Shown here: positions 1 to 20,000 of the stretch, piece after piece | Position numbering within the stretch: position 1 is the first letter of the stretch | How the letters are laid out: each line of letters starts with the position of its first letter | IMG/VR virus record: IMGVR_UViG_3300018427_001843 | Origin: an uncultured virus (IMG/VR IMGVR_UViG_3300018427_001843) | Taxonomy: Duplodnaviria; Heunggongvirae; Uroviricota; Caudoviricetes | Reading direction: 5' to 3' (one strand) | DNA length: 20,000 nt | Notes under the pieces: model-generated | The model's database searches: none | What the model was told of the DNA's origin: nothing | The model's input: only the letters and a program-made list of their open reading frames with translations | Translations under genes and position numbers: made by a program

Positions 1-897
1 ATCTGGGTTCTTTCCAAGAATAAGCGTGCAGAACGTAAAGGCAAGATACAGCTCATTGATGCCTCGAACATTTATCACAAACTTAGAAAACCGCTTGGCA
101 TGAAGAAGAATGAATTCTCTGTCGAAGACCGTGCTGCTATTACCGAAATGTATGGCAACTTCAGCGAGACTGAGAACGTCAAGATATTCGACAACACTGA
201 GTTCATATACCGCGAGTACACGGTTATGCAGCCACTGCAGAGAAGCTATTCGATAACAGAGGACAGCATCCAGGCGATGCTTCAAGCGGGTGCTCTTTCG
301 GGTCTGTATGACGAGGCAAAGGTTGCAGAGCTTGAAGAGAAAGGCGTTGCTATCTCCGGCAAGGAGCAGTCGAAACTCGATAAGTACATCGAAAATAAGC
401 CGATTTACGAGGCTGTAATCGAGGCTCTGACAAACTCTATCTCTGACAGGAAATACCTCTCTGTAGGCGAATTTAAACCTGTTCTGGAGGATGTTCTGTC
501 AGGTATAGACGGCATCGACAAGTACGTTGCCAAGATCATCGATGGGCTTTCAGTCATGGATAAAACTGCTGAGATCCAGAGAGAGGTCAAAGGCAAGAAT
601 AAAGGCGAGATTATCTACGATAAGACCACTAAGGATACCGAAATCGTGAGATACGACGAAGACATAGAAGACTACATGGATCGTGAGGTACTTCCTCATG
701 TGCCTGATGCTATGTGGTTCTGGGAAGAGAATCTTGGGGCAAAGAAGCCGGTTATTAAAACAGGGGCAGAGATTATGTTTACAAAATACTTTTACAAATA
801 TCATGAGCCGGAAACAAGCGAAGCCCTTGCAAAGCGGTTCGCAGAACTTGAGGTGAAAGTTGATGATCGCATAAATAAATTATTTGGAAAGGCTTAA
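1..897 (+). CDS. hsdM: Type I restriction-modification methyltransferase subunit M, C-terminal part (5' end outside window)
   Basis: Frame 1 is open from base 1 (IWVLSKNKRAERKGKIQLIDAS...) to TAA 897. The C-terminal motifs REVLPHVPDA and GAEIMFTKYFY are typical of HsdM. It lies directly upstream of hsdS and hsdR. Confidence 0.93.
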   Translation: MWVLSKNKRAERKGKIQLIDASNIYHKLRKPLGMKKNEFSVEDRAAITEMYGNFSETENVKIFDNTEFIYREYTVMQPLQRSYSITEDSIQAMLQAGALSGLYDEAKVAELEEKGVAISGKEQSKLDKYIENKPIYEAVIEALTNSISDRKYLSVGEFKPVLEDVLSGIDGIDKYVAKIIDGLSVMDKTAEIQREVKGKNKGEIIYDKTTKDTEIVRYDEDIEDYMDREVLPHVPDAMWFWEENLGAKKPVIKTGAEIMFTKYFYKYHEPETSEALAKRFAELEVKVDDRINKLFGKA

Positions 898-899
898 TT

Positions 900-2147
900 A
901 TGAGAGAGATGAAGGATAGCGGTCATGCATGGATGGGAGATATTCCTGCTGACTGGGACACTAAAAGACTTCAATTCTGCTTAGAAGAGATAAAGGTTAA
1001 AAACAACCCGATACAGACAACGCAAGTCCTTTCACTAATGAAGGATGTAGGGGTTTTGCCATATGAAGAAAAAGGTGATGTTGGCAACAAATCCAAAGAA
1101 GATGTAAGTGAATATCATCTCGCATATCCTAATACGATCGTTCTTAATTGCATGAACATCCTTATCGGTTCGGTAGGAATATCGAAATATTTTGGGTGCG
1201 TAAGTCCTGTCTACTATGTTTTTAAAGAAACTGATGAATGTGATTTGCGATTTATCAATTACATATTCAATACGAGAGCGTTTCAGAAAGAACTTCGTAA
1301 ATATGCAAAGGGAATTCTTGAAATTAGATTAAGGGTTTCGGCAGATGATATTTTCAAAAGACGAATCCCTTTTCCTGATAAGCAAACGCAAATATTGATT
1401 GCAAACCACCTCGATGCTAAATGCGCCGAAATCGACGCGCTTACAACCGATATCCAGTCACAGATAGATACCCTTGAGCAGTATAAACGCTCAGTAATCA
1501 CAGAAGCTGTGACAAAGGGCCTTAATCCTGATGCCGAAATAAAGGATAGCGAAATCTTCTATATGGCACCATATAATACTTCGTGGCGATTATCGAAAAT
1601 CGGTTATGAATGCACCAAGCTAAGTAGACCATTCAACTCGGAAGACACGCCTCTTCTTTGCACGAATAAGGGCAAGGTTTCAATCCGTCCAGAGGAAATG
1701 GCAGGGAAAATGGTAAGTGAAGATAATGCTATGCAAGGCATACAAAAGGGTGACATTGCCATTCACGGAATGGATACCTGGCATGGAGCAATTGCTCTTT
1801 CAGAACATAACGGAAAGATAACACGTGTCGTACATGTTTGTGACAGCCCAAATGATAAGCGGTTCATTGTTTATTATTTACAACAGCTTGCATTTAATGG
1901 CGTATATAAATTAATTTCAAACGGCGTAAGAGGAAACACAAGTGATTTTCGTAGTTGGGATAAAGTCGCAGGCATATACATCGCATTACCCGATCGTGAT
2001 GAACAAAAGAGGATAGCTGATTACCTCGATGCCATGAGTAAAGAGGTGGAAGATATTATTTTTGAAAAGAAGAACCAGCTTGAGGTTCTTGATGAATATA
2101 AGAAGTCACTGATATACGAGTACGTAACCGGTAAGAAGGAGTTATAA
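900..2147 (+). CDS. hsdS: Type I restriction-modification specificity subunit S
   Basis: 415 aa. N-terminal MKDSGHAWMGDIPADW, two variable TRDs, two conserved helical spacers (QILIANHLDAKCAEID...KRSVITEAVTKG and EQKRIADYLD...KKSLIYEYVTGK). Confidence 0.95.
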   Translation: MREMKDSGHAWMGDIPADWDTKRLQFCLEEIKVKNNPIQTTQVLSLMKDVGVLPYEEKGDVGNKSKEDVSEYHLAYPNTIVLNCMNILIGSVGISKYFGCVSPVYYVFKETDECDLRFINYIFNTRAFQKELRKYAKGILEIRLRVSADDIFKRRIPFPDKQTQILIANHLDAKCAEIDALTTDIQSQIDTLEQYKRSVITEAVTKGLNPDAEIKDSEIFYMAPYNTSWRLSKIGYECTKLSRPFNSEDTPLLCTNKGKVSIRPEEMAGKMVSEDNAMQGIQKGDIAIHGMDTWHGAIALSEHNGKITRVVHVCDSPNDKRFIVYYLQQLAFNGVYKLISNGVRGNTSDFRSWDKVAGIYIALPDRDEQKRIADYLDAMSKEVEDIIFEKKNQLEVLDEYKKSLIYEYVTGKKEL

Positions 2148-5123
2148 ATGGTATTCACAAATGAAGTATTATCCGAAAAGGACTATCAGAAGTTCATTCT
2201 CGATAGGCTCAAAGACAACGGATATGAGATATGGCCTGCAAAGGACCATTATGACAGACTCTATGCCATAGATAGACCAGAACTGTTCAGATTTCTGAAC
2301 TCCACGCAGCCAGACAAGATGGTTGCACTGAATAAGGTTTACAAGGCCGATACAGAGAATGTCATTGCGGCCGCTATCAATGCCGAGGAGACAAAGGCTC
2401 GCGGAAGCAGGCTCGAAGTTCTGAAGCACGGCATAGATATCTCGAATATCCATCTGGATCTGCTGTACACGAAACCTGCAGTTCCATTTAATAAAGAGCT
2501 CACCGCTCTGTATGAGAAGAATATCTTCTCTGCTTCCGAGGAAGTATGGGCATCCGATGACGAGAGAATAGACATCGTCATCTACCTCAACGGACTGGCG
2601 ATCATGGCATTCGAGCTTAAGGCTAATACAGCCGGACAGAACTATCACGATGCCATAGAGCAGTTCCGCACCAAGAGAAACCCCAAGACAAGACTCTTCA
2701 GGTTTAAGGCAGGAGCTTTAGTATGCTTCGCTATGGACCTTGAAGAAGTATACATGACCACCAAGATTGACGAAGGAGCCACGAACTTCCTGCCTTTCAA
2801 TATGGGCAACGGCGAGGGCATCAACGCAGGTGCCGGCAATCCTATATTCAAGGATAAGTACAGTGTGTCATATATGTGGGAGAACATCCTTCAGAAAGAC
2901 TCTATTCTTGAGATCATAACGAAGTTCATGTTCATCCAGGTCAAGGAAAAGGATAACGCCAAGACAGGAAAGAAGAAGACAGAAGAAAACGTCATCTTCC
3001 CTCGTTATCATCAGCTTGATGTGCTTCGTAAGATCCTTGAAGATGTTGAATTTAATAAGTCTTCGCAGAACTATCTTCTGCAGCACTCTGCTGGCTCCGG
3101 AAAGACGAACGAGATCGCATGGCTATCATACAGACTTGCTTCTCTTCATGATGCCGATAACAAGGTCATATTCGACAATATCGTTATCTGCACTGACAGG
3201 GTCGTTGTAGATAGACAGCTCCAGCAGGCTGTTCTCTCTCTGGATTACAAGTCAGGCTTCATCAGAGTCATGGACGACAAGTGCAATTCCAATGACCTTG
3301 CGAAGGCTCTCACCGGTAATACGAAGATCATCGTTACAACGATCCAGAAGTTCCCGTATATTGTTGGTAACGTCAAGAATATGCAGGACAAGCACTTCGC
3401 TGTCATCATAGATGAGGCGCACTCCTCTACAGCCGGTAAGAACATGGCCTCCGTTACGTATGTTCTCAGCGATAATAATGTCGAAATGCGTAACGCAGAT
3501 ATGGAAGATGTCATCGTGAATGAGATCGCCCGCAGCGGTAAGCAGGAAAACGTATCGATGTTCGCATTCACTGCAACACCAAAGCCGACTACGCTTCAGC
3601 TTTTCGGCAAAACAAATGCTAAAGGACAGAAAGAAGCTTTCCACATCTACTCAATGAAGCAGGCTATAGAAGAGGGCTTCATACTTGATGTGCTTCAGAA
3701 CTACACGACATACGACACATTCTTTAGGCTAAATAAGGAAATTGAAGAAGACCCCGAGTATAAAACGAATGCAGCTAAGAAGGCTATTGCTCGCTTCGTA
3801 GAACTCCACGAAGTCAACATCGGACAGAGGATAGAGATTATCGTTGAGCATTTCAGGACTACTGTTATGAAAGAGCTTGGCGGGCAGGCCAAAGCTATGG
3901 TCATCACACCTTCGAGAGAAGCTGCTGTCAAGTACAGACAGGCATTCGAGGACTATGTTAAGAGAAAAGGCTACTCTGACATACACGCACTTGTAGCATT
4001 CTCCGGCAAGGTCTCTATTGACGGCGTTGAATATACCGAACCGGGCATGAATGGCTTCTCCGAGAAGGCTCTGCCTGCAGAGTTCGACAAGGACGAATAT
4101 CAGGTTCTTCTTGTAGCCGATAAGTATCAGACCGGCTTCGACCAGAAGAAGCTTTGCGCTATGTATGTACTCAAGTCACTTCACGGGGTATCGACAGTTC
4201 AGACTCTCTCAAGGCTGAACAGGATATGCCCGCCTTACGACAAGCACACATTCGTGCTCGACTTCGTGAACGACTATGACAGCATCATAAGAGATTTCTC
4301 GAAGTACTACACAACAACGCTGCTTTCGAACTCTGTATCGCCATCATCTGTTTACGATATCGAGGCGAAACTTGACGGTTACTACGTCATCGATCCTTCA
4401 GACATCGATGACTTCAATGATATCCTGTATAGCGAAAACATCGACGCAAAAGCAAGGAAGAAGATGGAGTATATGCTCCAGAAGACGAAGAAGACCATAG
4501 AAGACTACAGAAGCCCGGAAGAAGCGAATGAGATAGTTCTTACGATCAGGCACTTCATCAGATGCTACGAGTTCCTTATCCAGGCAACCTGCTTCGAGGA
4601 CAAAGAGCTCCACAAGAAGTACAACTTCGTCAGCTACCTTCAGTCATACCTGAAGCTCAACTCTTCTGGTGGAGGCTTTGACCTTAAAGGAAAGATCGAA
4701 GCATCGAACTTCACTCAGAAAAAAGAAGCAGAACACAAGAAAGCTAAGGTCAATCCGAACCCAATCACCAAGCTTCCGACAGCTGAGCAAATCGTCCTTA
4801 CGCCTCCTAAGAAAGAGCGCCTTTCAAGGATCATCGCAGAGATTAACAGCAGGACTGGAAAGACTTACGATGACGATGTCGCAGTCAAAGCTATGCTTCA
4901 GATTAGAGATATCATGATGAAGTCGGACGAACTCAAGGCAAGTGCCAGAAACAACACGGAGAAGGATTTCGAGTTCGCATATTTTGATAATATCGACGAT
5001 GCGCTCATTGAAGGTCTCAACCAGAATCAGGATTTCTTCACTCTTTTGCTTCAGAATGAGGAGATCAAGAAGGAAGTACTAGGCATCTTTACTGAGGAAA
5101 TATACAAGAGCTTAAGGGAGTAG
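2148..5123 (+). CDS. hsdR: Type I restriction endonuclease subunit R
   Basis: 991 aa. Nuclease motif IDIVIYLNGL...ELK, Walker A HSAGSGKT, DEAH box, FTATP, QTGFD and QTLSRLNR helicase motifs. Confidence 0.96.
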   Translation: MVFTNEVLSEKDYQKFILDRLKDNGYEIWPAKDHYDRLYAIDRPELFRFLNSTQPDKMVALNKVYKADTENVIAAAINAEETKARGSRLEVLKHGIDISNIHLDLLYTKPAVPFNKELTALYEKNIFSASEEVWASDDERIDIVIYLNGLAIMAFELKANTAGQNYHDAIEQFRTKRNPKTRLFRFKAGALVCFAMDLEEVYMTTKIDEGATNFLPFNMGNGEGINAGAGNPIFKDKYSVSYMWENILQKDSILEIITKFMFIQVKEKDNAKTGKKKTEENVIFPRYHQLDVLRKILEDVEFNKSSQNYLLQHSAGSGKTNEIAWLSYRLASLHDADNKVIFDNIVICTDRVVVDRQLQQAVLSLDYKSGFIRVMDDKCNSNDLAKALTGNTKIIVTTIQKFPYIVGNVKNMQDKHFAVIIDEAHSSTAGKNMASVTYVLSDNNVEMRNADMEDVIVNEIARSGKQENVSMFAFTATPKPTTLQLFGKTNAKGQKEAFHIYSMKQAIEEGFILDVLQNYTTYDTFFRLNKEIEEDPEYKTNAAKKAIARFVELHEVNIGQRIEIIVEHFRTTVMKELGGQAKAMVITPSREAAVKYRQAFEDYVKRKGYSDIHALVAFSGKVSIDGVEYTEPGMNGFSEKALPAEFDKDEYQVLLVADKYQTGFDQKKLCAMYVLKSLHGVSTVQTLSRLNRICPPYDKHTFVLDFVNDYDSIIRDFSKYYTTTLLSNSVSPSSVYDIEAKLDGYYVIDPSDIDDFNDILYSENIDAKARKKMEYMLQKTKKTIEDYRSPEEANEIVLTIRHFIRCYEFLIQATCFEDKELHKKYNFVSYLQSYLKLNSSGGGFDLKGKIEASNFTQKKEAEHKKAKVNPNPITKLPTAEQIVLTPPKKERLSRIIAEINSRTGKTYDDDVAVKAMLQIRDIMMKSDELKASARNNTEKDFEFAYFDNIDDALIEGLNQNQDFFTLLLQNEEIKKEVLGIFTEEIYKSLRE

Positions 5124-5655: not shown

Positions 5656-5684
5656 TTGCTTTTCCGCCATCTATTACATATAAT
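5656..5684 (+). promoter_or_regulatory. Sigma-A type promoter, copy 1
   Basis: TTGCTT (5656-5661), 17 nt spacer, TATAAT (5679-5684). The same geometry recurs at 12507-12535. Confidence 0.85.
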
Positions 5685-5820
5685 ATAAATACGTTATTAA
5701 TGCTTTAACTATTATAAGCCGCGAGAGTATTCTCGGGGTTATTTTAGTTTTTGTGTTTATTAACGCAATACGTATTTATTTACAAGGAGGCGTGTCGATT
5801 TGGTTCGATGCGCTTTTTTG
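5676..5820 (+). repeat. Repeated structured leader, copy 1 (long hairpin plus terminator-like hairpin)
   Basis: Shares ACATATAATATAARTACGTTATTAATG and an identical 24-mer TTCTCGGGGTTATTTTAGTTTTTG with 12527-12660. ATAAATACGT (5685-5694) pairs with ACGTATTTAT (5770-5779). GCGTGTCGA/TCGATGCGC hairpin followed by T6 at 5790-5819. Confidence 0.85.
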
Positions 5821-6684: not shown

Positions 6685-7167
6685 ATGGCTGAGAAATCGA
6701 TGGACTTCAAGAGGAAGCCTATCGGAGTCATCAAGTTCCATAAGGACGGGTGGAAGCGCGAGCTGAATCTCGTCTCATGGTACGGCAATCCATTCGAATA
6801 CGATATTCGAGACTGGAAACCCGGACACAAGAAGATGACCCGAGGAATTCACCTTGATCTCGATTCGATGAAAGCTTTCGTCAACGCCTATATGGAATGG
6901 CGAAAGGAAAACCGGGTCGAAAAGGGGACTCCGGTCAAGGAGATCAGAAGCGAATGCGGCGTACCTGTAGATGTGTATGCCGAAATCGCATCTCTCCCGA
7001 AAGAGACCAGAGACGGATTCAAATATCTCGTAAGGTCGGCATCCTGGAATGATCAGAAGGCTAAGGTGGATATCCGAGGCTGGAGAGGAAACAGGATGAA
7101 AACCGGAATTTCACTATCCCAGGAAGAGGCAGATGAGCTCTGCCGTCTTTTTCTGGAAACAGTCTAA
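6685..7167 (+). CDS. Tandem PC4/YdbC-like ssDNA-binding domain protein
   Basis: Two copies of the YdbC pattern: ELNLVSWYGNPFEYDIRDW...MTRGIHL and LVRSASWNDQKAKVDIRGW...MKTGISL. Confidence 0.8.
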   Translation: MAEKSMDFKRKPIGVIKFHKDGWKRELNLVSWYGNPFEYDIRDWKPGHKKMTRGIHLDLDSMKAFVNAYMEWRKENRVEKGTPVKEIRSECGVPVDVYAEIASLPKETRDGFKYLVRSASWNDQKAKVDIRGWRGNRMKTGISLSQEEADELCRLFLETV

Positions 7168-8731: not shown

Positions 8732-9336
8732 TGGGTTACGGATGCGTAATAAAGGCAGGTCTTCTTCTTGCAAAAGATGCAGAAAGCATGAAAGAGATCT
8801 TCGAACTCGTGAGCGATGTCGGAGCGGAAGCCGCTCAATACCCGGAAGGCTCTCTTGATCTTGAGATCATCGATAGCAGCTACGGAAATTATCACCAGGA
8901 GAACTACGAACCTCTGGTAGCCCTTTGCCGGGACGGCTCATATCTGGATTTCTTCGGTGATGATGACTGTGCATGGTCACTAGTCGTAAAAGACGGAAAG
9001 CTTCATGATATTGGAGGGTCCGTTGAATGGAGCCACGAGCTTCATGATGAACCGCCCAAAATAGTGATCCCGCTGGATAATGGCTATGAACTCGTTGCTG
9101 AAAGGAATTCTGACACGGATTACAAAGAGATCTTTGTATTCCTCAGAAAAGACGGCGTTGCAACGCAGGATCTTGCCATAATAGCGGAACAATACAGCTA
9201 CGACGAGGCCAGGGTAGTTCCGATCCACGGTGCATATTCGGTAAAGGTGTATTCCGAGCCGGACAACGAGGACTTCACATACGACTTTGGCATCGGAAGA
9301 TGGGAAGACCCTGAAGAGGAAGGAGGTGCAGAATGA
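8731..9336 (+). CDS. Acidic hypothetical protein, 201 aa
   Basis: GGAGGAGGT RBS; ATGA overlap with the next gene. Confidence 0.8.
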   Translation: MGYGCVIKAGLLLAKDAESMKEIFELVSDVGAEAAQYPEGSLDLEIIDSSYGNYHQENYEPLVALCRDGSYLDFFGDDDCAWSLVVKDGKLHDIGGSVEWSHELHDEPPKIVIPLDNGYELVAERNSDTDYKEIFVFLRKDGVATQDLAIIAEQYSYDEARVVPIHGAYSVKVYSEPDNEDFTYDFGIGRWEDPEEEGGAE

Positions 9337-9740
9337 GCATATTCTGGATAGGGAATGAACACGAAATGATCTCGCCTGACAGGCTTTTGCCTGAAATGTG
9401 GGAGGACAGGTATTTTCTGCCCGGCACACTTCACGGTGATGATGACTATGTCATCAGAGTCTATCTGAATGATGCTCACGGCGAAAACCCGGCGTGTAAT
9501 GATCATGACCAGTTTGAGGCGGAGTATATTGACCGCGACCTGATTCTGAAGGCAGCTGAAGAGGACCCTTCATATGGCGATATCTTCAATGAGGTAATCG
9601 CAGAGGGCCTTGAAAGCTTCGGGATCCCGAATGACGGCGATCACGATTTCAATGAGATTTTCAAGGCATGGGATGAAAGCGTCCCTCTTACAAACGAGGA
9701 ACTCGTATACTGGGCAGAAGGTCAACTACCCACCGCTTAA
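9333..9740 (+). CDS. Acidic hypothetical protein whose 3' end is interrupted by the tnpB element
   Basis: GGAGGT RBS. The last residues (QLPTA-stop) are read from the element end that begins at 9721. Confidence 0.75.
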   Translation: MSIFWIGNEHEMISPDRLLPEMWEDRYFLPGTLHGDDDYVIRVYLNDAHGENPACNDHDQFEAEYIDRDLILKAAEEDPSYGDIFNEVIAEGLESFGIPNDGDHDFNEIFKAWDESVPLTNEELVYWAEGQLPTA

Positions 9741-9900
9741 CTCGCTGACGCTTCGTTAGAAGCGGGGGCTTGTAAAGCGAGAGTAGTTGAGCAAGAGCAA
9801 GATGCATCTCACACTGCGGGATTTTCCCAGTCCCGCACATACTGGTCTGATGCACCAAGCTCAGGGAAACATTACCCGCCCGGCGAGGCGGAGACTAACA
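9721..9900 (+). ncRNA. Compact IscB/IsrB-type omegaRNA-like (HEARO-like) scaffold upstream of tnpB
   Basis: 5' end nearly identical to the iscB omegaRNA at 19153. TCAACTAC/GTAGTTGA stem, TGCATC/GATGCA stem, TGCGGGA/TCCCGCA hairpin whose loop TTTCCC can pair with GGGAAA at 9864-9869, and terminal CCGCC/GGCGG hairpin. Confidence 0.7.
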
Positions 9901-9936
9901 GTTATAACTTAATTCAGAAAGAAAGGAGGACGCGAA

Positions 9937-11025
9937 ATGCTGACCTATCGGTATAAGCTGTACAGATCGAAGAATGAAAAGTATCTCGAAGCATATAACG
10001 GGATAGCATGCGAGATATGGAACCATTGCATCGCACTTCACAGACGCTACTATCGTCTTTACGGCAAGCATCTTAATAAGTACGTATTGATGAAGCATAT
10101 GACAAAGCTGAAGAAGCTGCCGAAATACACGCACTGGAAGAAGCTGAACTCACAGGCGATACAGGATGTCGTCGAGCGCATCGACAGGTCGTACAAAGCG
10201 TTCTTCGAGCATGTGAAGCAGAAGAGAAGCGGCCGAAAGGCGCCGCCCCACTTTTGCAAGAGAAAGAACTACAGGTCGTTCACTCTCAAGCAGACCGGCT
10301 ACGCAATAGACGGAAATACCGTATATATCATGGGCAGAAGATATAAGTTCTTCAGATCCAGAGATATAGAAGGCAACATCAAAACAGTGACAGTGAAGAA
10401 GATGCCGACGGGGGACTGGTATCTGTGCGTCACAACAGACCACAAAGCGAAACGAGACTATGCGCGAACAGGTGAAGCTGTCGGCATGGACTTCGGGTTC
10501 AAAAGCTTTCTGGTCCTGAGTGACGGTACAAAGATAAACTCTCCCGAGTGGCTCAGACAGTCGCTGTCGGAGCTGAGGCGCCTGTCAAGGAACCTGTCTC
10601 TGAAGAAAGAAGGCTCCCGTAACTACGAGAAAGCAAAGCGCGCAAGAGCAAAGCTGTATGAACATATAGCCGCTCAGCGAAGAGACTTCTTCTTTCTTCT
10701 GGCGAACGAGCTGTGCAGGAAATACGATGTCATCGGCATCGAAGACCTGAACCTCAAAGGCATGCAGGCCCTCTGGGGCAGAAAGGAATCGGATCTTGCA
10801 TACGGTGAGTTCGTACAGATCCTCGAATACATGGCAGCCTCCTCCGGCAGGAAGGTCGTAAAGATCGATCGCTGGGCTCCTACCACGAAGACCTGCTCCG
10901 AATGCGGCTGCCGCGTCGATCTGTCGCTGAAAGACAGGCATTGGGTGTGTCCGCACTGCGGTGCCCATCACGACAGAGATGTCAACGCGGCAATAAATAT
11001 TAAAAATCTCGCCCTTGCGGCGTAG
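9937..11025 (+). CDS. tnpB: RNA-guided endonuclease TnpB
   Basis: 362 aa. N-terminal TYRYKLY HTH region, RuvC-I VGMDFG, RuvC-II IEDLNL, zinc ribbon CSECG/CPHCG, RuvC-III DRDVNAAINI. All three catalytic acidic residues are present. Confidence 0.96.
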   Translation: MLTYRYKLYRSKNEKYLEAYNGIACEIWNHCIALHRRYYRLYGKHLNKYVLMKHMTKLKKLPKYTHWKKLNSQAIQDVVERIDRSYKAFFEHVKQKRSGRKAPPHFCKRKNYRSFTLKQTGYAIDGNTVYIMGRRYKFFRSRDIEGNIKTVTVKKMPTGDWYLCVTTDHKAKRDYARTGEAVGMDFGFKSFLVLSDGTKINSPEWLRQSLSELRRLSRNLSLKKEGSRNYEKAKRARAKLYEHIAAQRRDFFFLLANELCRKYDVIGIEDLNLKGMQALWGRKESDLAYGEFVQILEYMAASSGRKVVKIDRWAPTTKTCSECGCRVDLSLKDRHWVCPHCGAHHDRDVNAAINIKNLALAA

Positions 11026-11171
11026 ATGATGATCATTGAGGAAGGACGTTTCCTCATGCCGGAGAGGAGTAAGACGCGTATGTATAAAAGTCATGGCGCA
11101 TCCTCTGTGACGGCAAGAATCCCACGTGCTTTAGCCGTGGGAGTACGTCAAATCGTGGAATTCTCTGCAAG
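11026..11171 (+). ncRNA. TnpB omegaRNA (reRNA) scaffold plus putative guide 11152-11171
   Basis: AGAGGA/TCCTCT stem, CCCACG/CGTGGG right-end hairpin, terminal TCAA at 11148-11151. The guide is inferred from the flank. The 5' boundary is approximate and may overlap the ORF. Confidence 0.75.
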
Positions 11172-11185
11172 TTAGTTAAGAAGGT

Positions 11186-11210
11186 TGGGGAGGGCATTAT
11201 GCTCTCCCCA
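11186..11210. terminator. Intergenic hairpin (no T tract on + strand)
   Basis: TGGGGAGGGC-ATTAT-GCTCTCCCCA. Confidence 0.45.
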
Positions 11211-11231
11211 GAAAATACAGGAGGTAATGAA

Positions 11232-11885
11232 ATGAAGATAATGGAAGTGATGGCTGAAACAGAGGGCAATTCCTGCAGCCATAGGGTCATCGATGCGCCG
11301 CACGGCGGAATCTGGCCTCTTTTCCGAAGCACTGTCATGAGCTACGGCGAGCGTTTCGCCGAAGCAGAAGACCTTGCCGTTGAAGCGTTTGCAAAGAAAG
11401 CTGAAGATAAACTTATAATGTTCGGCATCTTCGAAGCAAACGGCTTTACTGCAAGATATGGTAAAAGCGCGTTTGGAACCCCTTATGTGTCTCTCGAGTT
11501 CGACCCGGATGATTCGGATATCTTTATGAGGTGGAACATAACTTATATCGTTCTGCCGAAAGAATTCGATGAAAACAGCTCTTCAGCAAATGCAAGATCT
11601 GCAGGTCTCACATACAGAGCAGAAATACCGCAGAACGGAAACATATCCCTTCAGGTATGGAGCTCCGAAGCTGACTATTTCAGAGCTGTCAGGTTGAATC
11701 CTGAAGGATTTGAGATCGAGCTCATGAGATCAAATGGACAGAGAGAGTTTCAGGCATTCCCTGAGGATGGCGACAAAGTTAGGAATAACGCTGTCGCAAT
11801 GCTTGACGGGATTCTGGAACAGGCAGACGACGATCTTCTGATAAGCATCACAAAACGTCTGAAGACAAAGATAAACAGGAGGTGA
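11232..11885 (+). CDS. Hypothetical protein
   Basis: AGGAGGT RBS before ATG 11232, which is preferred over 11199. Confidence 0.75.
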   Translation: MKIMEVMAETEGNSCSHRVIDAPHGGIWPLFRSTVMSYGERFAEAEDLAVEAFAKKAEDKLIMFGIFEANGFTARYGKSAFGTPYVSLEFDPDDSDIFMRWNITYIVLPKEFDENSSSANARSAGLTYRAEIPQNGNISLQVWSSEADYFRAVRLNPEGFEIELMRSNGQREFQAFPEDGDKVRNNAVAMLDGILEQADDDLLISITKRLKTKINRR

Positions 11886-11888
11886 CTC

Positions 11889-12134
11889 ATGGCACAGAAA
11901 TACGCATATCTTGCCAAGCTTGATCGCTTCGGCTACGAGATAACCGCTATTGGCAGAACCGAAAAGGAGGCTGCCGATGCTGTAATCAAGTCGTATACGA
12001 ATGCCTACAAAAGCGAGCATGGCATCAGCCCTGGAAGGGACAAAATGCCGTACTCGGACAAATCATATCTCAGCCTTGCAAAGACGGAGCTCTATGTTGA
12101 AAAACTGGAACTTGGAAAGGCAATTTGGCTGTAA
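11889..12134 (+). CDS. Hypothetical protein, 81 aa
   Basis: AGGAGGTG RBS; tightly coupled to the upstream gene. Confidence 0.8.
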   Translation: MAQKYAYLAKLDRFGYEITAIGRTEKEAADAVIKSYTNAYKSEHGISPGRDKMPYSDKSYLSLAKTELYVEKLELGKAIWL

Positions 12135-12150
12135 TATTAGGAGGCAATTT

Positions 12151-12306
12151 ATGAAAGGTAAAAAAGAGGTCATTGGGGTGATCCCTAAGGAAACTGTGTT
12201 TCAGGCAGAAAAGCCCCGCTACACGGCAAGGTTCCGCACCGGTTTTTACAAGACCGAGAAGGACAGGCCGCGCAAGAGGTTCAAGGCCAGAGACGTTGAT
12301 TTCTAG
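12151..12306 (+). CDS. Small basic hypothetical protein, 51 aa
   Basis: AGGAGG RBS before ATG 12151 (MKGKKEVIGVIPKETVF...); K/R-rich. Confidence 0.7.
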   Translation: MKGKKEVIGVIPKETVFQAEKPRYTARFRTGFYKTEKDRPRKRFKARDVDF

Positions 12307-12506: not shown

Positions 12507-12535
12507 TTGCATCTTTTACTCACCAAACATATAAT
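12507..12535 (+). promoter_or_regulatory. Sigma-A type promoter, copy 2
   Basis: TTGCAT (12507-12512), 17 nt spacer, TATAAT (12530-12535). Confidence 0.85.
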
Positions 12536-12660
12536 ATAAGTACGTTATTAATGTTTAGACTATAAGCTCCGGGTATTTTTCTCGGGGTTATTTTAGTTTT
12601 TGCATTAATGCAAATCGTTATTTAAGGAGGCGTATCGACATTGTCGGTGCGCCTTAATTT
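12527..12660 (+). repeat. Repeated structured leader, copy 2
   Basis: Homologous to 5676-5820. ATTAATG/CATTAAT pairing and AGGCGTATCGAC/GTCGGTGCGCCT hairpin at 12628-12654. Confidence 0.85.
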
Positions 12661-13989: not shown

Positions 13990-14949
13990 ATGGACAAAGC
14001 AGATATAATCACGCGCCTGAGTGAAAACAACTCAACGCTGCTGTCTTTCCCTGACCGTGGCCCCTGGGGAGATAACTCCTACAGGGGGAACTGCAGCGGC
14101 TGGATACATGCTTTCCTTATCTGGAAGTATCATATCCAGAAAATGGCCGAACTGTTTGCCGGTTCAGGTACTGGTTCTGATGTGGCAAGAGACATGGGTA
14201 TCGACTATATCGGTGCGGACCTTAATCCAAATCCGACAAGGCCAAATATTCTTGTCTGCGACGCTATAAAGGACGAGGTTCCGGATGGATTCAGGGATGC
14301 TGATCTGACGTTTATGCACCCGCCCTATTCAGAACTTATTAAAATCCCTTACTGTGGAAAAGAATGGAACGATCCTACAGGCGGAGCCCTTGCAAAATCC
14401 GATCTCGGACAGATGCCGTGGGATGAGTTCATCGATGAGCTGAATAAAGTCTTGCTGAAATATTATTCGGCAATGAAAGGCGGCTCAAAGATGGCGGTCC
14501 TTATGGGCGATGTTCGAAGAAACGGACGCTGCTATTCCATGTTTGCAGACATAATTAAGCCCGGCGAGCTTGAACAGGTCATCATAAAGGCGCAGCATAA
14601 CTGCGTTTCAGATGGCCGCAAATATGCAAACGCCAACTTCGTACCTATAGTACATGAGACGCTTATGGTCATTAAAAAGGCGGACGAGCTTATGCTCTAT
14701 GCCTCAATGCCAAAAAGAGGAACGTGCGATATAAGGGACGCAAAAAATACTACATGGAAGGATGTCGTCCTTGCGGTCGTGCGTAAACGCCGGCAGTGTG
14801 GGGTTCAGGACCTTTATCAGGACCTTGAAAACCACAAGAAGGCCAAACGCAACCCACATTATAGGGACAAGATTCGTCAGACGCTCCAGCAGCTTCGGGA
14901 TGCAGGACTGGTAATTTCAGTTTCTCAGGGTGTTTGGTCAGTTGCTTAA
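13990..14949 (+). CDS. Orphan amino-DNA methyltransferase (N6A/N4C type) with C-terminal winged-helix-like domain
   Basis: SAM-binding ELFAGSGTG precedes catalytic HPPY. C-terminal WKDVV...KIRQTLQQLRDAGLV...GVW. Confidence 0.85.
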   Translation: MDKADIITRLSENNSTLLSFPDRGPWGDNSYRGNCSGWIHAFLIWKYHIQKMAELFAGSGTGSDVARDMGIDYIGADLNPNPTRPNILVCDAIKDEVPDGFRDADLTFMHPPYSELIKIPYCGKEWNDPTGGALAKSDLGQMPWDEFIDELNKVLLKYYSAMKGGSKMAVLMGDVRRNGRCYSMFADIIKPGELEQVIIKAQHNCVSDGRKYANANFVPIVHETLMVIKKADELMLYASMPKRGTCDIRDAKNTTWKDVVLAVVRKRRQCGVQDLYQDLENHKKAKRNPHYRDKIRQTLQQLRDAGLVISVSQGVWSVA

Positions 14950-15529: not shown

Positions 15530-15596
15530 AGGACAAAACAATGTAATGCAAAAGGAGGGCGGTGACGCCCTCTATTTATTTAAGGAGGACAAAACA

Positions 15597-16514
15597 ATGA
15601 CAAACATAACGCAGATCAGAAACGAGCTTAAGCAGGAAGTTAGCGCAATGCTCCCTTCATACGAAATGAGGGACGCAGAAGTCGTCAAGTTCAATGACAG
15701 AAAACTCCTTGGTCTTACTGCGGTAAAACCGGGCGAAAACATGGGCCCAACGATTTGGGTCAATGATTTTGGCGATGCTATAGACGCAGGTGTAAGCCTC
15801 AGAGAAATCGCCAAATACGTTACGGAAGTGTTCAGGAATGTTCCTGCATCTCTTGAGTCTTTAAAAGCCGCTGCAGAGAATAACAGGATCGATCTTCCTT
15901 TTGAGAAGATCAGAGATAAAGTATTCCCTCGCATTGCGGATATAAGCAGAAATCAGGCTTTCCTGGACAACAAACCCTATCGGGAAGTAGGCTGTGGGCT
16001 TGCCTTAATGGCTGTTATAGATGTTGCTTCGGGGCCGGAAGGTAACTACGCGATTACCGTGACTAACGAATTGGCGTCCGATCAGGGCTATGACATCGAC
16101 CTGCTGCTGGATCAGGCTCTTGAAAACCTTAAGCCTTATATGATTCCGGTAAATGCGATGATTCATCCATTTAGTCCGGTGATCCCTAATTGTCTGGATG
16201 ATCCGAGGCTCTTCGATGCCGGCGATAAGCTGTTCTCTCTTTCGAACGAAGAGGCTATGTTCGGTGCAGCCGCACTTTTTGTTCCGGGCATGATGGACAG
16301 GCTCTATAAGATGATGGGCAGCTTTTATGTTCTTCCGTCATCTGTTCATGAGATGCTGATTCTTCCGGAGGTCTGCTGCGACGATCCGCTTTCTCTGAAA
16401 GAAATGATCAGAGAAGCCAATGCTAACCCTTCGGTCGTTTCAGAGGAAGATATCCTGTCAGATAAGCTTATGCATTATGACGGCAAGGAACTTAAGGAGG
16501 TTCAGAATGTATAG
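15597..16514 (+). CDS. DUF5688-like protein
   Basis: AAGGAGG RBS before ATG 15597. C-terminal LSN...FGAAAL, FYVLPSSVHEMLILP and LSDKLMHYD motifs recalled for this family. Confidence 0.75.
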   Translation: MTNITQIRNELKQEVSAMLPSYEMRDAEVVKFNDRKLLGLTAVKPGENMGPTIWVNDFGDAIDAGVSLREIAKYVTEVFRNVPASLESLKAAAENNRIDLPFEKIRDKVFPRIADISRNQAFLDNKPYREVGCGLALMAVIDVASGPEGNYAITVTNELASDQGYDIDLLLDQALENLKPYMIPVNAMIHPFSPVIPNCLDDPRLFDAGDKLFSLSNEEAMFGAAALFVPGMMDRLYKMMGSFYVLPSSVHEMLILPEVCCDDPLSLKEMIREANANPSVVSEEDILSDKLMHYDGKELKEVQNV

Positions 16515-18491: not shown

Positions 18492-18918
18492 ATGAGTACT
18501 TATTCCTGGGTGATACATTATGTTTCCGGAATGACGTCCTGCGAACAGTGCGGCAGAAAGGAAGATAGCCTGCGCAGCAAAATGTGTGATGCGCATACAC
18601 GGACTCAATGAGTTCGGCAGTCCTGAACTGCAGATCGTAGTGGCTATGCCGCCCGAAGCAGCCGCCTGGATACTCAATTCTGTTGGTGAGATGATCAGAG
18701 ACGGTCTCGTTCTTGAAGACGGAATGTCGATCTCCGGACTTCTTGCCAATGACGCAGAGCTGAGAGTGTTCAAGACCACTGCTCATGACGGACAGCCGGT
18801 ATTCAGGCTGATAGTGCCGGACGAACGTTTTCAGTTCCCTCCGGAATCCAGACAGTATCCATTCTCAGCCCAGTATGAATCACCATATCTGAATCAGAAA
18901 GAAAGAAGGATGTCATGA
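18492..18918 (+). pseudogene. Frameshifted hypothetical gene (DUF4262-like C-terminal part)
   Basis: AAGGAGGT RBS and ATG 18492 give MSTYSW...CEQCG...MCDAHT, then stop at 18611. The coding sequence continues in another frame as HGLNEFGSPELQIVV. Adding 2 nt to CATACAC restores AHTHGL. Confidence 0.7.
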
Positions 18919-19172
18919 TAGAGACCTATGATGAGGTCGTGATCGATTTTACAGGATGGAGCGGGGGAAGCCCTTGCGGAGCTGTCGCATTCGTTAATAA
19001 CAAGGCTGTTACAAGCGAATATTGCGATGATGTCGATGACTTCAAGCATTTTCTTGATGCTCAGATCAGCAGACTTTTCGCTTCTACAGCCCTCTCTTTT
19101 AAGGTAAGGGCGTATGACATCGGTTATCTTGAAGAGCCGATTGCCAGAATCTGTCAACCACTCACCGCTTAG
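18915..19172 (+). CDS. Hypothetical protein interrupted at its 3' end by the iscB element
   Basis: ATGA overlap with the upstream gene. The last residues (QPLTA-stop) come from the element end at 19153. Confidence 0.65.
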   Translation: MIETYDEVVIDFTGWSGGSPCGAVAFVNNKAVTSEYCDDVDDFKHFLDAQISRLFASTALSFKVRAYDIGYLEEPIARICQPLTA

Positions 19173-19470
19173 AGCTTTCATCTCTTGAAGCGGGGGCTTG
19201 TGAAAACAAGTCAGTTGATTAGCCTAAGTGCTCAGGGCACTACGTTATCCGCGAATGGCCGCGACCAAACAGGTATGTCAGGATACTCCACAAGTTCTGA
19301 CCTCTACGGACATACGTTAAACATCGGTGAGGGTAGCCGAAGTGCGTATGTCATCAAACCGCGGAATAACATTGGCGATGTGGACACCGCCCTACGGGGC
19401 GAGGATCCGTACACACGCCTCTATAGAGAAACGGTGTGCGGAAGCCGTAAGGCAAAGCACGTTAGAGCAA
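19153..19470 (+). ncRNA. IscB omegaRNA (HEARO-type) scaffold; guide would be the ~20 nt upstream
   Basis: TCAAC/GTTGA stem, CTACGTT...AACATTGGCGA core, GTCAGGA/TTCTGAC hairpin whose loop TCCACA (19287-19292) is complementary to TGTGGA (19379-19384). The 3' boundary is approximate. Confidence 0.88.
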
Positions 19471-19494
19471 ACGAGAAAGAGAAAGGAGGAGCGC

Positions 19495-20000
19495 ATGACA
19501 ATCTTCGTCATCTCGGCAGAAGGCGAAAAGCTGATGCCGACGACAAACATCAGGAAGATAAGAAAGCTCCTCCGATCCGGAAGAGCAAAGATCGTAAAGT
19601 ATATGCCGTTCACCGTACAGCTTATGTACGAGAGCGGAAACGCTGTGCAGCCTATCGAATTTACGGAAGATACCGGCTATCAGTATATCGGAGTCTCTCT
19701 CAAGTCGGAGAAGCACGAATACGTAAGCGCCGAGTATACGCTTCTTAAAAACGAGAAGCAGCATCACGATGACCAGCGCCGCGAGGTGAGGCGTCCTCGG
19801 CGAAACAGGAAGCGCTACCGCAAGGCGCGCTTTGATAACAGGAGAAGACCTGAAGGCTGGCTCGCTCCGTCGCTCAGAAACAAGGCGGACCGCCACGTTG
19901 ACATCTTCAGGATGTACTATGCGGTATGCCCAATAACGAGCGTCTCGCTGGAGATGGGCCAGTTCGATACGGCGGTCCTTGATGCTGTAGAGCAGGGGAA
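19495..20000 (+). CDS. iscB: RNA-guided endonuclease IscB, N-terminal part (truncated by window end)
   Basis: Not in the ORF track. MTIFVISAEGEKLMPT (PLMP domain), PFTVQL, RuvC-I EDTGYQYIG, Arg-rich bridge helix RRPRRNRKRYRKARFDNR, WLAPSL, RuvC-II LEMGQFD. The HNH domain is not visible in the window. Confidence 0.93.
   Translation, partial: MTIFVISAEGEKLMPTTNIRKIRKLLRSGRAKIVKYMPFTVQLMYESGNAVQPIEFTEDTGYQYIGVSLKSEKHEYVSAEYTLLKNEKQHHDDQRREVRRPRRNRKRYRKARFDNRRRPEGWLAPSLRNKADRHVDIFRMYYAVCPITSVSLEMGQFDTAVLDAVEQG

Follow-up and report, generated by a model that had tools for sequence, protein, structure and literature searches.

A compact HEARO-type scaffold joined to tnpB: a probable recombinant of two OMEGA elements at a single locus

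The IMG/VR record IMGVR_UViG_3300018427_001843 belongs to an uncultured virus (Caudoviricetes), and the stretch of it that was analysed, 20,000 nucleotides (nt) in length and here called the window, carries a tnpB gene at 9937-11025. This gene is followed by its own omegaRNA, the guide RNA of the obligate mobile element-guided activity (OMEGA) systems, and is preceded by a second scaffold of the type that accompanies the nuclease IscB. The question raised by the locus is whether such an arrangement represents an element kind of its own, with one guide from each flank, or a product of two already known elements. A first-pass annotation of the DNA had described an IscB-type scaffold fused to TnpB and had proposed a hybrid OMEGA element. 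The fusion is a real chimera in sense orientation, with an intact tnpB and its own omegaRNA, but a hybrid kind of element is not supported.

With a probability of roughly 80%, the region 9721-11151 is the recombination product of two different OMEGA elements of the IS200/IS605 superfamily, formed at a single locus by crossover at a ribosome-binding site (RBS) together with a deletion. The left part, 9721-9916, corresponds to that end of an IscB/IsrB-type ISC element which carries the omegaRNA; this ISC element occurs in multiple copies in related gut communities ahead of its own nuclease open reading frame (ORF). The right part, from 9934, comes from a non-autonomous IS605-type element and comprises tnpB, its omegaRNA and the TCAA end; elsewhere this element has a normal left-end hairpin. 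Lost in the chimera are the tnpB left end and the IscB-type ORF. The parts of the locus and a comparator near the window end are as follows.

9705..9720, + strand: left flank with the putative 5' guide of the IscB-type omegaRNA; 3' end of host ORF 9333-9740
9721..9916, + strand: compact HEARO/IscB-type omegaRNA scaffold ('mini-HEARO'), recognized by Rfam match, fold, pseudoknot covariation and alternative flanks; its parts are the closing stem, the 5' hairpins, the pseudoknot hairpin 9815-9837 with its partner 9864-9869, and the terminal GC hairpin 9876-9891
9917..9933, + strand: RBS stretch and crossover interval, 17 nt around the Shine-Dalgarno sequence, identical in both parents
9937..11025, + strand: tnpB, 362 amino acids (aa), catalytically intact by its motifs
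10990..11151, + strand: TnpB-type omegaRNA scaffold and transposon right end, with hairpin 11121-11141 and TCAA terminus
11152..11167, + strand: right flank with the putative 3' guide of the TnpB omegaRNA, placed by its position after the right end and by established TnpB biology; guide length assumed
19153..20000, + strand: full-length HEARO and iscB; HEARO at 19153-19390 running on to the RBS, iscB from 19495, cut by the window end

Junction, parents and host site

Part of the region 9500-11400 is contained in 20 public sequencing runs, as found with an index of 31-letter words in which no RNA run was listed for the stretch, and the Logan contigs of four of them (X5, X7, X9 and X14) were compared with the window over 8800-12200 at 90% likeness. 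The left parent is seen in X9 record 25 (6797 nt); this contig aligns to 9719-9933 at 6 differences, departs from the window in its upstream flank and runs into an ORF beginning MTYVYVLS. In X5, X7 and X14 a variant of the mini-HEARO departs from the window at 9919 and enters the same ORF, whose N-terminus, known for about nine residues, resembles IscB homologs (MTIFVI, MAVYVI and others). In X14 records 2 and 3, other flanks are attached at 9720/9721, and therefore the scaffold begins a multi-copy element; at least three other upstream flanks join it at 9719-9721 in X9 and X14. The right parent is seen in X9 record 26 and X14 record 6, where tnpB from 9917 on is preceded by a canonical left end of the sequence type of the tnpB relatives L002 and L007. 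Several different flanks follow 11151 in these runs (three contigs in X9 and two in X14, among the matches listed), so that the canonical tnpB element is multi-copy too.

The contigs with the canonical left end match the window from 9917 and the IscB-type contig X9 record 25 matches it up to 9933; read from these letters, the crossover lies in the 17-nt shared RBS stretch 9917-9933. The first-pass annotation had suggested an origin by replacement of the ORF. With both parents separate in X9 and X14, what is found resembles a replacement by recombination at this interval.

The fused junction is crossed by X5 record 11 (9843-10913, 0 differences) and X7 record 19 (9882-10042). Contigs of the same two runs bridge the left boundary (X5 record 10, X7 record 18) and the right boundary (X5 record 15, X7 record 22). 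Among the matches listed, the junction occurs in X5 and X7 only, with the window's own flanks. Both runs come from feces, date from the same year as the three possible source runs and may share one campaign with them; their junction contigs speak against an assembly artefact, not for spread of the chimera. Because the contigs of X5 and X7 show 0 differences, the fusion looks recent.

Next to no weight is given to the alternative that an assembler joined ISC and tnpB contigs at the shared 17-nt repeat. The junction does lie within a repeat of two multi-copy elements, and the X5 graph branches at 9873. Nevertheless, it is crossed by Logan contigs from runs that are not flagged as source, the outer boundaries are bridged as well, and Logan contigs are built with 31-letter words, so that a repeat of 17 nt would be too short to collapse them.

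The outer boundaries are defined by host contigs of X9 and X14, which stop matching the window at 9720/9722. X14 record 1 (9971 nt) matches 8800-9722 with 29 differences and 11152-11414 with 12 differences, and between these matches it carries 2032 other letters, compared with 1429 nt in the interval 9722-11152 of the window. From these breaks it follows that in a related host the chimera's outer boundaries coincide exactly with the ends of another stretch, about 2 kb long. The recombinant could thus have formed in three steps. An ISC element would have inserted at 9720/9722, a tnpB element of like orientation would have landed about 2 kb downstream of it, and recombination between the direct RBS repeats would then have removed the iscB-type ORF, the 3' end of the ISC element, about 2 kb of host DNA and the left end of the tnpB element.

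A nested insertion, in which the tnpB element entered the ISC element between omegaRNA and iscB and its left end was later lost together with the iscB remnant, is very unlikely. It would agree with the statement that IS200/IS605 elements often land in copies of other insertion sequences (Kapitonov 2016, PMC4810608), but the letters from 11152 onward are host flank common to X14 record 1 and not iscB sequence. Moreover, the breakpoint coincides with the 17-nt identity and does not follow a TTAC-type target, and a left-end remnant is not present.

For the recombination origin, the sequence at the left boundary also suggests where the ISC element would have entered. The host ORF 9333-9740 now ends inside the scaffold, six codons in. 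Its homologs diverge after ...VYWAE: P0002 (94%) continues with G-K and then M-R-Y-I-I-S..., and P0003 (93%) with D-E-R-A-T.... The continuation of P0002 is a small acidic protein like its neighbours, and no counterpart of this tail was found elsewhere in the window. If X14 is of the P0002 type, to which the two extra matching bases GT point, the host would read ...GAAG GT AAA ATG.... Such a reading would explain why X14 matches through 9722 and would place the ISC insertion at a GT/AA (= N/GTAA) target. GTAA is the reverse complement of TTAC, and GT/AA is given as the target of Firmicutes ISC and IS605B elements in Table 1 of Kapitonov et al. 2016 (PMC4810608).

The small acidic protein family of ORF 9333-9740 (P0002-P0007) is conserved up to ...WAE(G), after which every homolog is different; besides being a site of insertion, the end of this gene thus forms a mosaic junction in related mobile elements. 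The host continuation ATGAA in X9, the reverse complement of the target-adjacent motif of GstIscB, was considered as an empty ISC site and down-weighted, as the host variants diverge there mutually.

The compact scaffold upstream of tnpB

The HEARO model of Rfam (RF02033) matches 9721-9875 with 29.7 bits (E 8.5e-4, at a permissive threshold in a 1.9-kb search), and the alignment spans the full model from 1 to 211. The check proposed with the first-pass annotation, a search of the leader with this model, thus gave a full-length match, but one that lies below the gathering score of 83 and does not reach the curated threshold. The low score is due to three missing model parts, namely both strands of an 11-bp stem, the second internal hairpin, where 45 model positions are reduced to 3 nt, and part of one small hairpin loop. 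Kept are the closing stem 9722-9729/9783-9790, which is also recovered by the minimum free energy fold, the 5' hairpins, an enclosing 4-bp stem, the central hairpin 9815-9837 and the 3' tail. The size of the mini-HEARO is about 155-195 nt.

The loop TTTCCC of hairpin 9815-9837 is complementary to GGGAAA at 9864-9869. At the same positions the iscB copy at 19153 reads TCCACA/TGTGGA and the Rfam consensus uucgCc/gGcgaA; the pseudoknot covaries, as the three sequences differ and yet remain complementary. A terminal GC hairpin is formed by 9876-9880 and 9887-9891, so that the closing stem, the pairing between hairpin loop and tail, and the terminal hairpin are all present at 9722-9891 as originally described. 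The 216-nt leader folds at -72.1 kcal/mol and is more stable than 200 of 200 shuffled sequences (z -3.3). GT at 9721-9722 may be derived from the target instead of the scaffold.

Variants of the mini-HEARO in X5, X7, X9 and X14 differ from the window at four listed sites (9836, 9842, 9873 and 9882-9884). These differences are structure-neutral: the change at 9836 keeps a G-U pair, and the others are located in loops or single-stranded parts.

The comparator at 19153-19390 matches RF02033 with 123.3 bits against the gathering score of 83 and is the sole above-threshold HEARO match in the window. The ORF starting at 19495 matches the RRXRR/IscB N-terminal domain PF14239 (2.7e-46), and its closest database homologs, among the matches listed, have 449 aa and share 95% identity over the 168 aa seen. 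A resemblance between the start of the leader and this omegaRNA had been noticed at the outset and holds over the closing-stem domain, where 9721-9790 and 19153-19218 are identical in 55 of 76 aligned columns; beyond that domain the two scaffolds are weakly alike (124 matches, compared with 112.6 +/- 3.3 in shuffles). The element at 19153-20000 appears as a second, complete-looking ISC element of the window. Its start, like that of the chimera, coincides with the end of a small host ORF (18915-19172), the stop codon of which is located inside the scaffold.

In the genomes and viral contigs searched, the mini-HEARO was not found at full length. BLAST searches with the 216-nt leader matched 7 of 401 genomes of the family of G001 (none over more than 53 nt) and 2 of 401 genomes of the order of G002 (none over more than 56 nt), the two sets overlapping in part and all matches having a length of 19-56 nt. 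A 24-nt stretch of the mini-HEARO gave 0 exact matches in the viral_contigs collection. A 14-nt HEARO core gave 98 exact matches there; none of the 80 loci inspected of these 98 was HEARO-like (in one of them a GTCAA motif lay close by, though outside any HEARO context), and the matches look like chance. The N-terminus MTYVYVLS of the parent nuclease was absent among 120 of 305 IscB homologs listed.

According to the recombination origin, the mini-HEARO would be an IscB-type omegaRNA gene that has become an orphan and acts as the tnpB leader as well, and its transcription would probably occur by read-through from the co-oriented upstream host genes. Expression by read-through from host genes has been noted for IscB elements (Meers et al., 10.1101/2023.03.14.532601). 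A sigma-70-like promoter on the + strand was not found in 9000-11500 by a weak consensus scan.

An exapted chimera, whose orphan omegaRNA is kept for use in trans by IscB copies in the cell or as a leader needed by tnpB, is unlikely. It is favoured by the intact scaffold with its four neutral differences, by the presence of an IscB-linked mini-HEARO in the same X5 run with a higher contig depth figure (11.2, compared with 5.2), and by the negative promoter scan, from which a dependence of tnpB on upstream transcription through the scaffold would follow. However, contig depth figures are not copy numbers, and in a fusion that looks recent (0 differences in X5 and X7) intactness says little on selection.

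The tnpB element and its relatives

The tnpB product carries the domains PF01385 (8.3e-22) and PF07282 (2.1e-25) and matches structures of ISDra2 TnpB (E 3.6e-49). The catalytic D-E-D residues D185, E269 and D348 are retained, together with the two CxxC pairs C320/C323 and C338/C341, in agreement with the first description of the enzyme as catalytically intact. The 3' scaffold and TCAA right end ascribed to it are borne out by compensatory changes in 15 of 34 predicted pairs among five relatives, with the correction that the right end stops at 11151 and the flank begins at 11152; homology to L001, L002, L007, L003 and L127 ends exactly at this TCAA. Judged from these features, TnpB and its omegaRNA look able to work.

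A tnpB-type left-end hairpin (CCCAC...GTGGG) was not found in the window, where the single copy at 11121-11141 belongs to the right end. This confirms the earlier statement that a separate tnpB left end is missing; left and right subterminal hairpins on the same strand, as in a complete IS200/IS605 unit, do not occur here.

Relatives of TnpB were collected by pattern matches. In the genome collection 38 matches gave six loci, of which L001, L002 and L003 cover the protein and L004-L006 (25-33 residues only) were dropped. In the metagenome collection 73 matches gave four loci, with L007 alone being close (83%); L007 is the same element as L002, with identical flanks. At the amino acid level TnpB is 84% identical to L001, 83% to L002/L007 and 51% to L003. 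In all of these a hairpin marks the left end, some 65 nt upstream of the ATG and of the same type (CCCAC...GTGGG) as their right-end hairpin, and in the three relatives TTAC or TTAT lies 6-10 nt ahead of the conserved left-end sequence, a tentative boundary. The DNA homology of the window to the tnpB copies of G001 and G002 begins at query position 198, which corresponds to 9918 of the window.

No HEARO match at E <= 1 was obtained in L001-L003, nor was one obtained in 18 further relative loci, giving 0 of 21 scanned. The 18 loci are part of 26 from the 401 genomes of the family of G001, with L125 (a duplicate of L002) and L144-L150 left out. Conservation of the upstream scaffold across close TnpB homologs, which had been proposed as a check, is therefore not seen: their left ends are ordinary.

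These results bear on the possibility of a genuine hybrid OMEGA family, in which the IscB-type scaffold would be the regular left end of a TnpB clade, the element would make two guides and would move as a unit. The scaffold is structurally intact and directly adjoins an intact tnpB, and chimeras of ISC and IS605 elements have been argued to have arisen in evolution (Kapitonov 2016, PMC4810608). Such a family is nevertheless highly improbable. In addition to the ordinary left ends of the closest relatives and the 0 of 21 HEARO matches, no full-length match to the mini-HEARO was found in the two partly overlapping sets of 401 genomes, both termini of the chimera are of the right-end type, and X9 and X14 contain both parents separately, with the fused junction found only together with the window's flanks among the matches listed. 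The hybrid element proposed at first is thus not upheld, and the recombination of two separate elements is preferred.

L126 and L127 (49-53% identity) are located directly downstream of an ORF with a TnpA-like C-terminus, as read by eye, and would be autonomous IS605 elements if this ORF is TnpA. Matches to RAGATH-18 (RF03064) below its gathering score of 44.9 follow closely downstream on distant tnpB relatives (about 33% identity) in L142 (2548-2595, 41.7 bits) and L139 (2634-2695, 29.6 bits); the motif may represent the omegaRNA and right end of that distant TnpB clade. The viral_contigs collection contained no TnpB relative and no relatives of either flanking ORF. Searches with 9600-11300 gave one 66-nt match in the phage collection and four short matches in the plasmid collection, none of them informative.

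Mobility, guides and relation to known elements

Y1 transposases act with strand specificity, as established for IS608. The HEARO end of IscB elements is the transposon right end (Meers et al. 2023 preprint, 10.1101/2023.03.14.532601), and in 11 ISC/IS605B partner families tnpB is antisense to iscB (Kapitonov et al. 2016, PMC4810608). The tnpB of the window is sense to the mini-HEARO scaffold. The chimera therefore has two outward termini of the right-end type, in inverted orientation, and no left end, and given the strand specificity of Y1 enzymes it should be neither excised nor inserted. No match to Y1_Tnp was obtained among 30 of the 67 listed ORFs of the window.

Several points weigh against the recombination origin as set out here. 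Its weakest link is the assignment of the 2032 nt of X14 to host DNA, as they could be another insertion. The host continuation in X9 differs from the one proposed for X14 and P0002, and the site is also a mosaic junction. The parent ISC element was not recovered in any collection searched, and its ORF, of which only the nine or so residues are known, could be IscB or IsrB. The boundaries of the tnpB-family left ends and their TTAC/TTAT motif rest on three loci without empty sites, and immobility of the chimera, in that a Y1 TnpA could not move it, would follow from the known strand specificity of TnpA. A fused copy elsewhere is possible, the count of junctions referring to the matches listed.

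Two guide RNAs, one per flank, may still be made by the locus. On this basis a two-guide homing cassette can be imagined, in which an IscB provided in trans would use the guide 9705-9720, TnpB would use the guide from 11152, and the host allele would be converted. The two nucleases would cut both ends of the intact host segment of about 2 kb in sister or related mobile-element genomes, and repair by recombination would then replace this segment with a copy of the chimera. We consider this quite unlikely; if it were true, allele conversion would still let an immobile relic spread without a transposase.

The genes around the chimera look like those of a plasmid, a conjugative element or a phage accessory region. 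Positions 1-5123 contain a type I restriction-modification operon with an N6_Mtase fragment, an S subunit and a 991-aa R subunit. Downstream of it are located a PC4-like single-stranded DNA-binding protein (6685-7167), a DNA methylase with a DpnI_C helix-turn-helix (13990-14949), DUF5688 (15546-16514) and many small acidic ORFs without families. Two AT-rich intergenic copies of about 85 nt at 5676-5760 and 12527-12609 (families D4 and D7), 89-90% identical and 6.85 kb apart, may be promoter or regulatory regions of the host mobile element.

Taken singly, neither part of the chimera is unusual: the left is an ISC-type omegaRNA end and the right an IS605-type tnpB element, both of known kinds. 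With the ISC transposons, whose 5'-GTCA termini were described by Kapitonov et al. 2016 (PMC4810608), the window scaffold shares the 5'-GTCA terminus, a HEARO-type scaffold with closing stem and pseudoknot, the RBS at the 3' end of the RNA and the orientation of the upstream host gene, and the proposed target fits the Firmicutes GT/AA. It differs from them in that tnpB and not iscB or isrB follows, and in its small size of about 155-195 nt, without the long stem and the second hairpin of RF02033 (29.7 compared with 83 bits). The second parent type, the non-autonomous IS605-type tnpB elements (IS1341/IS605B-like), is recognized by the intact RuvC triad and zinc finger, the 3' omegaRNA overlapping the ORF end, the subterminal right-end hairpin and the TCAA terminus, but in the window the left end and its hairpin are replaced by an IscB-type RNA gene. 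IS608-like elements have the ends TTAC and TCAA. Because its left end is missing, the fused arrangement belongs to neither transposon family.

Stand-alone, trans-acting omegaRNA loci were reportedly described by Altae-Tran et al. in 2021 from Ktedonobacter racemifer. The mini-HEARO is similar to such loci in being an omegaRNA gene without an adjoining gene for its nuclease and with the cognate element in the community, but its orphan state results from the fusion to tnpB, and use in trans is only putative. IStrons, in which a group I intron is fused upstream of IS605 tnpB (Tourasse 2014, PMC4227781; Zedaveinyte 2023 preprint), likewise carry a structured RNA gene upstream of tnpB in a chimeric element. 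As portrayed in these two sources, however, they are recurrent and mobile and possess both transposon ends, whereas the window chimera is confined to a single locus and has no left end. Ancient chimeras of IscA and TnpB have also been proposed (Kapitonov et al. 2016, PMC4810608). Among the papers listed in full-text literature searches, none was found to describe a HEARO-type scaffold directly upstream of a sense tnpB, which is weak evidence of absence.

The chimera at this single locus is real and looks recent, and it most probably derives from recombination of two OMEGA elements; no new element class is established by it. The mini-HEARO is a naturally compact IscB-type scaffold which lacks two helices of the Rfam model and yet has the pseudoknot, and may be of interest for the shortening of omegaRNAs for genome editing. 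The chimera provides a concrete natural case of recombination between the IscB-type and the TnpB-type branch of OMEGA systems at a short shared RBS, with probable loss of some 2 kb of host DNA. It illustrates how genes for nucleases and modules for guide RNAs can be reshuffled and how orphan omegaRNA genes arise.

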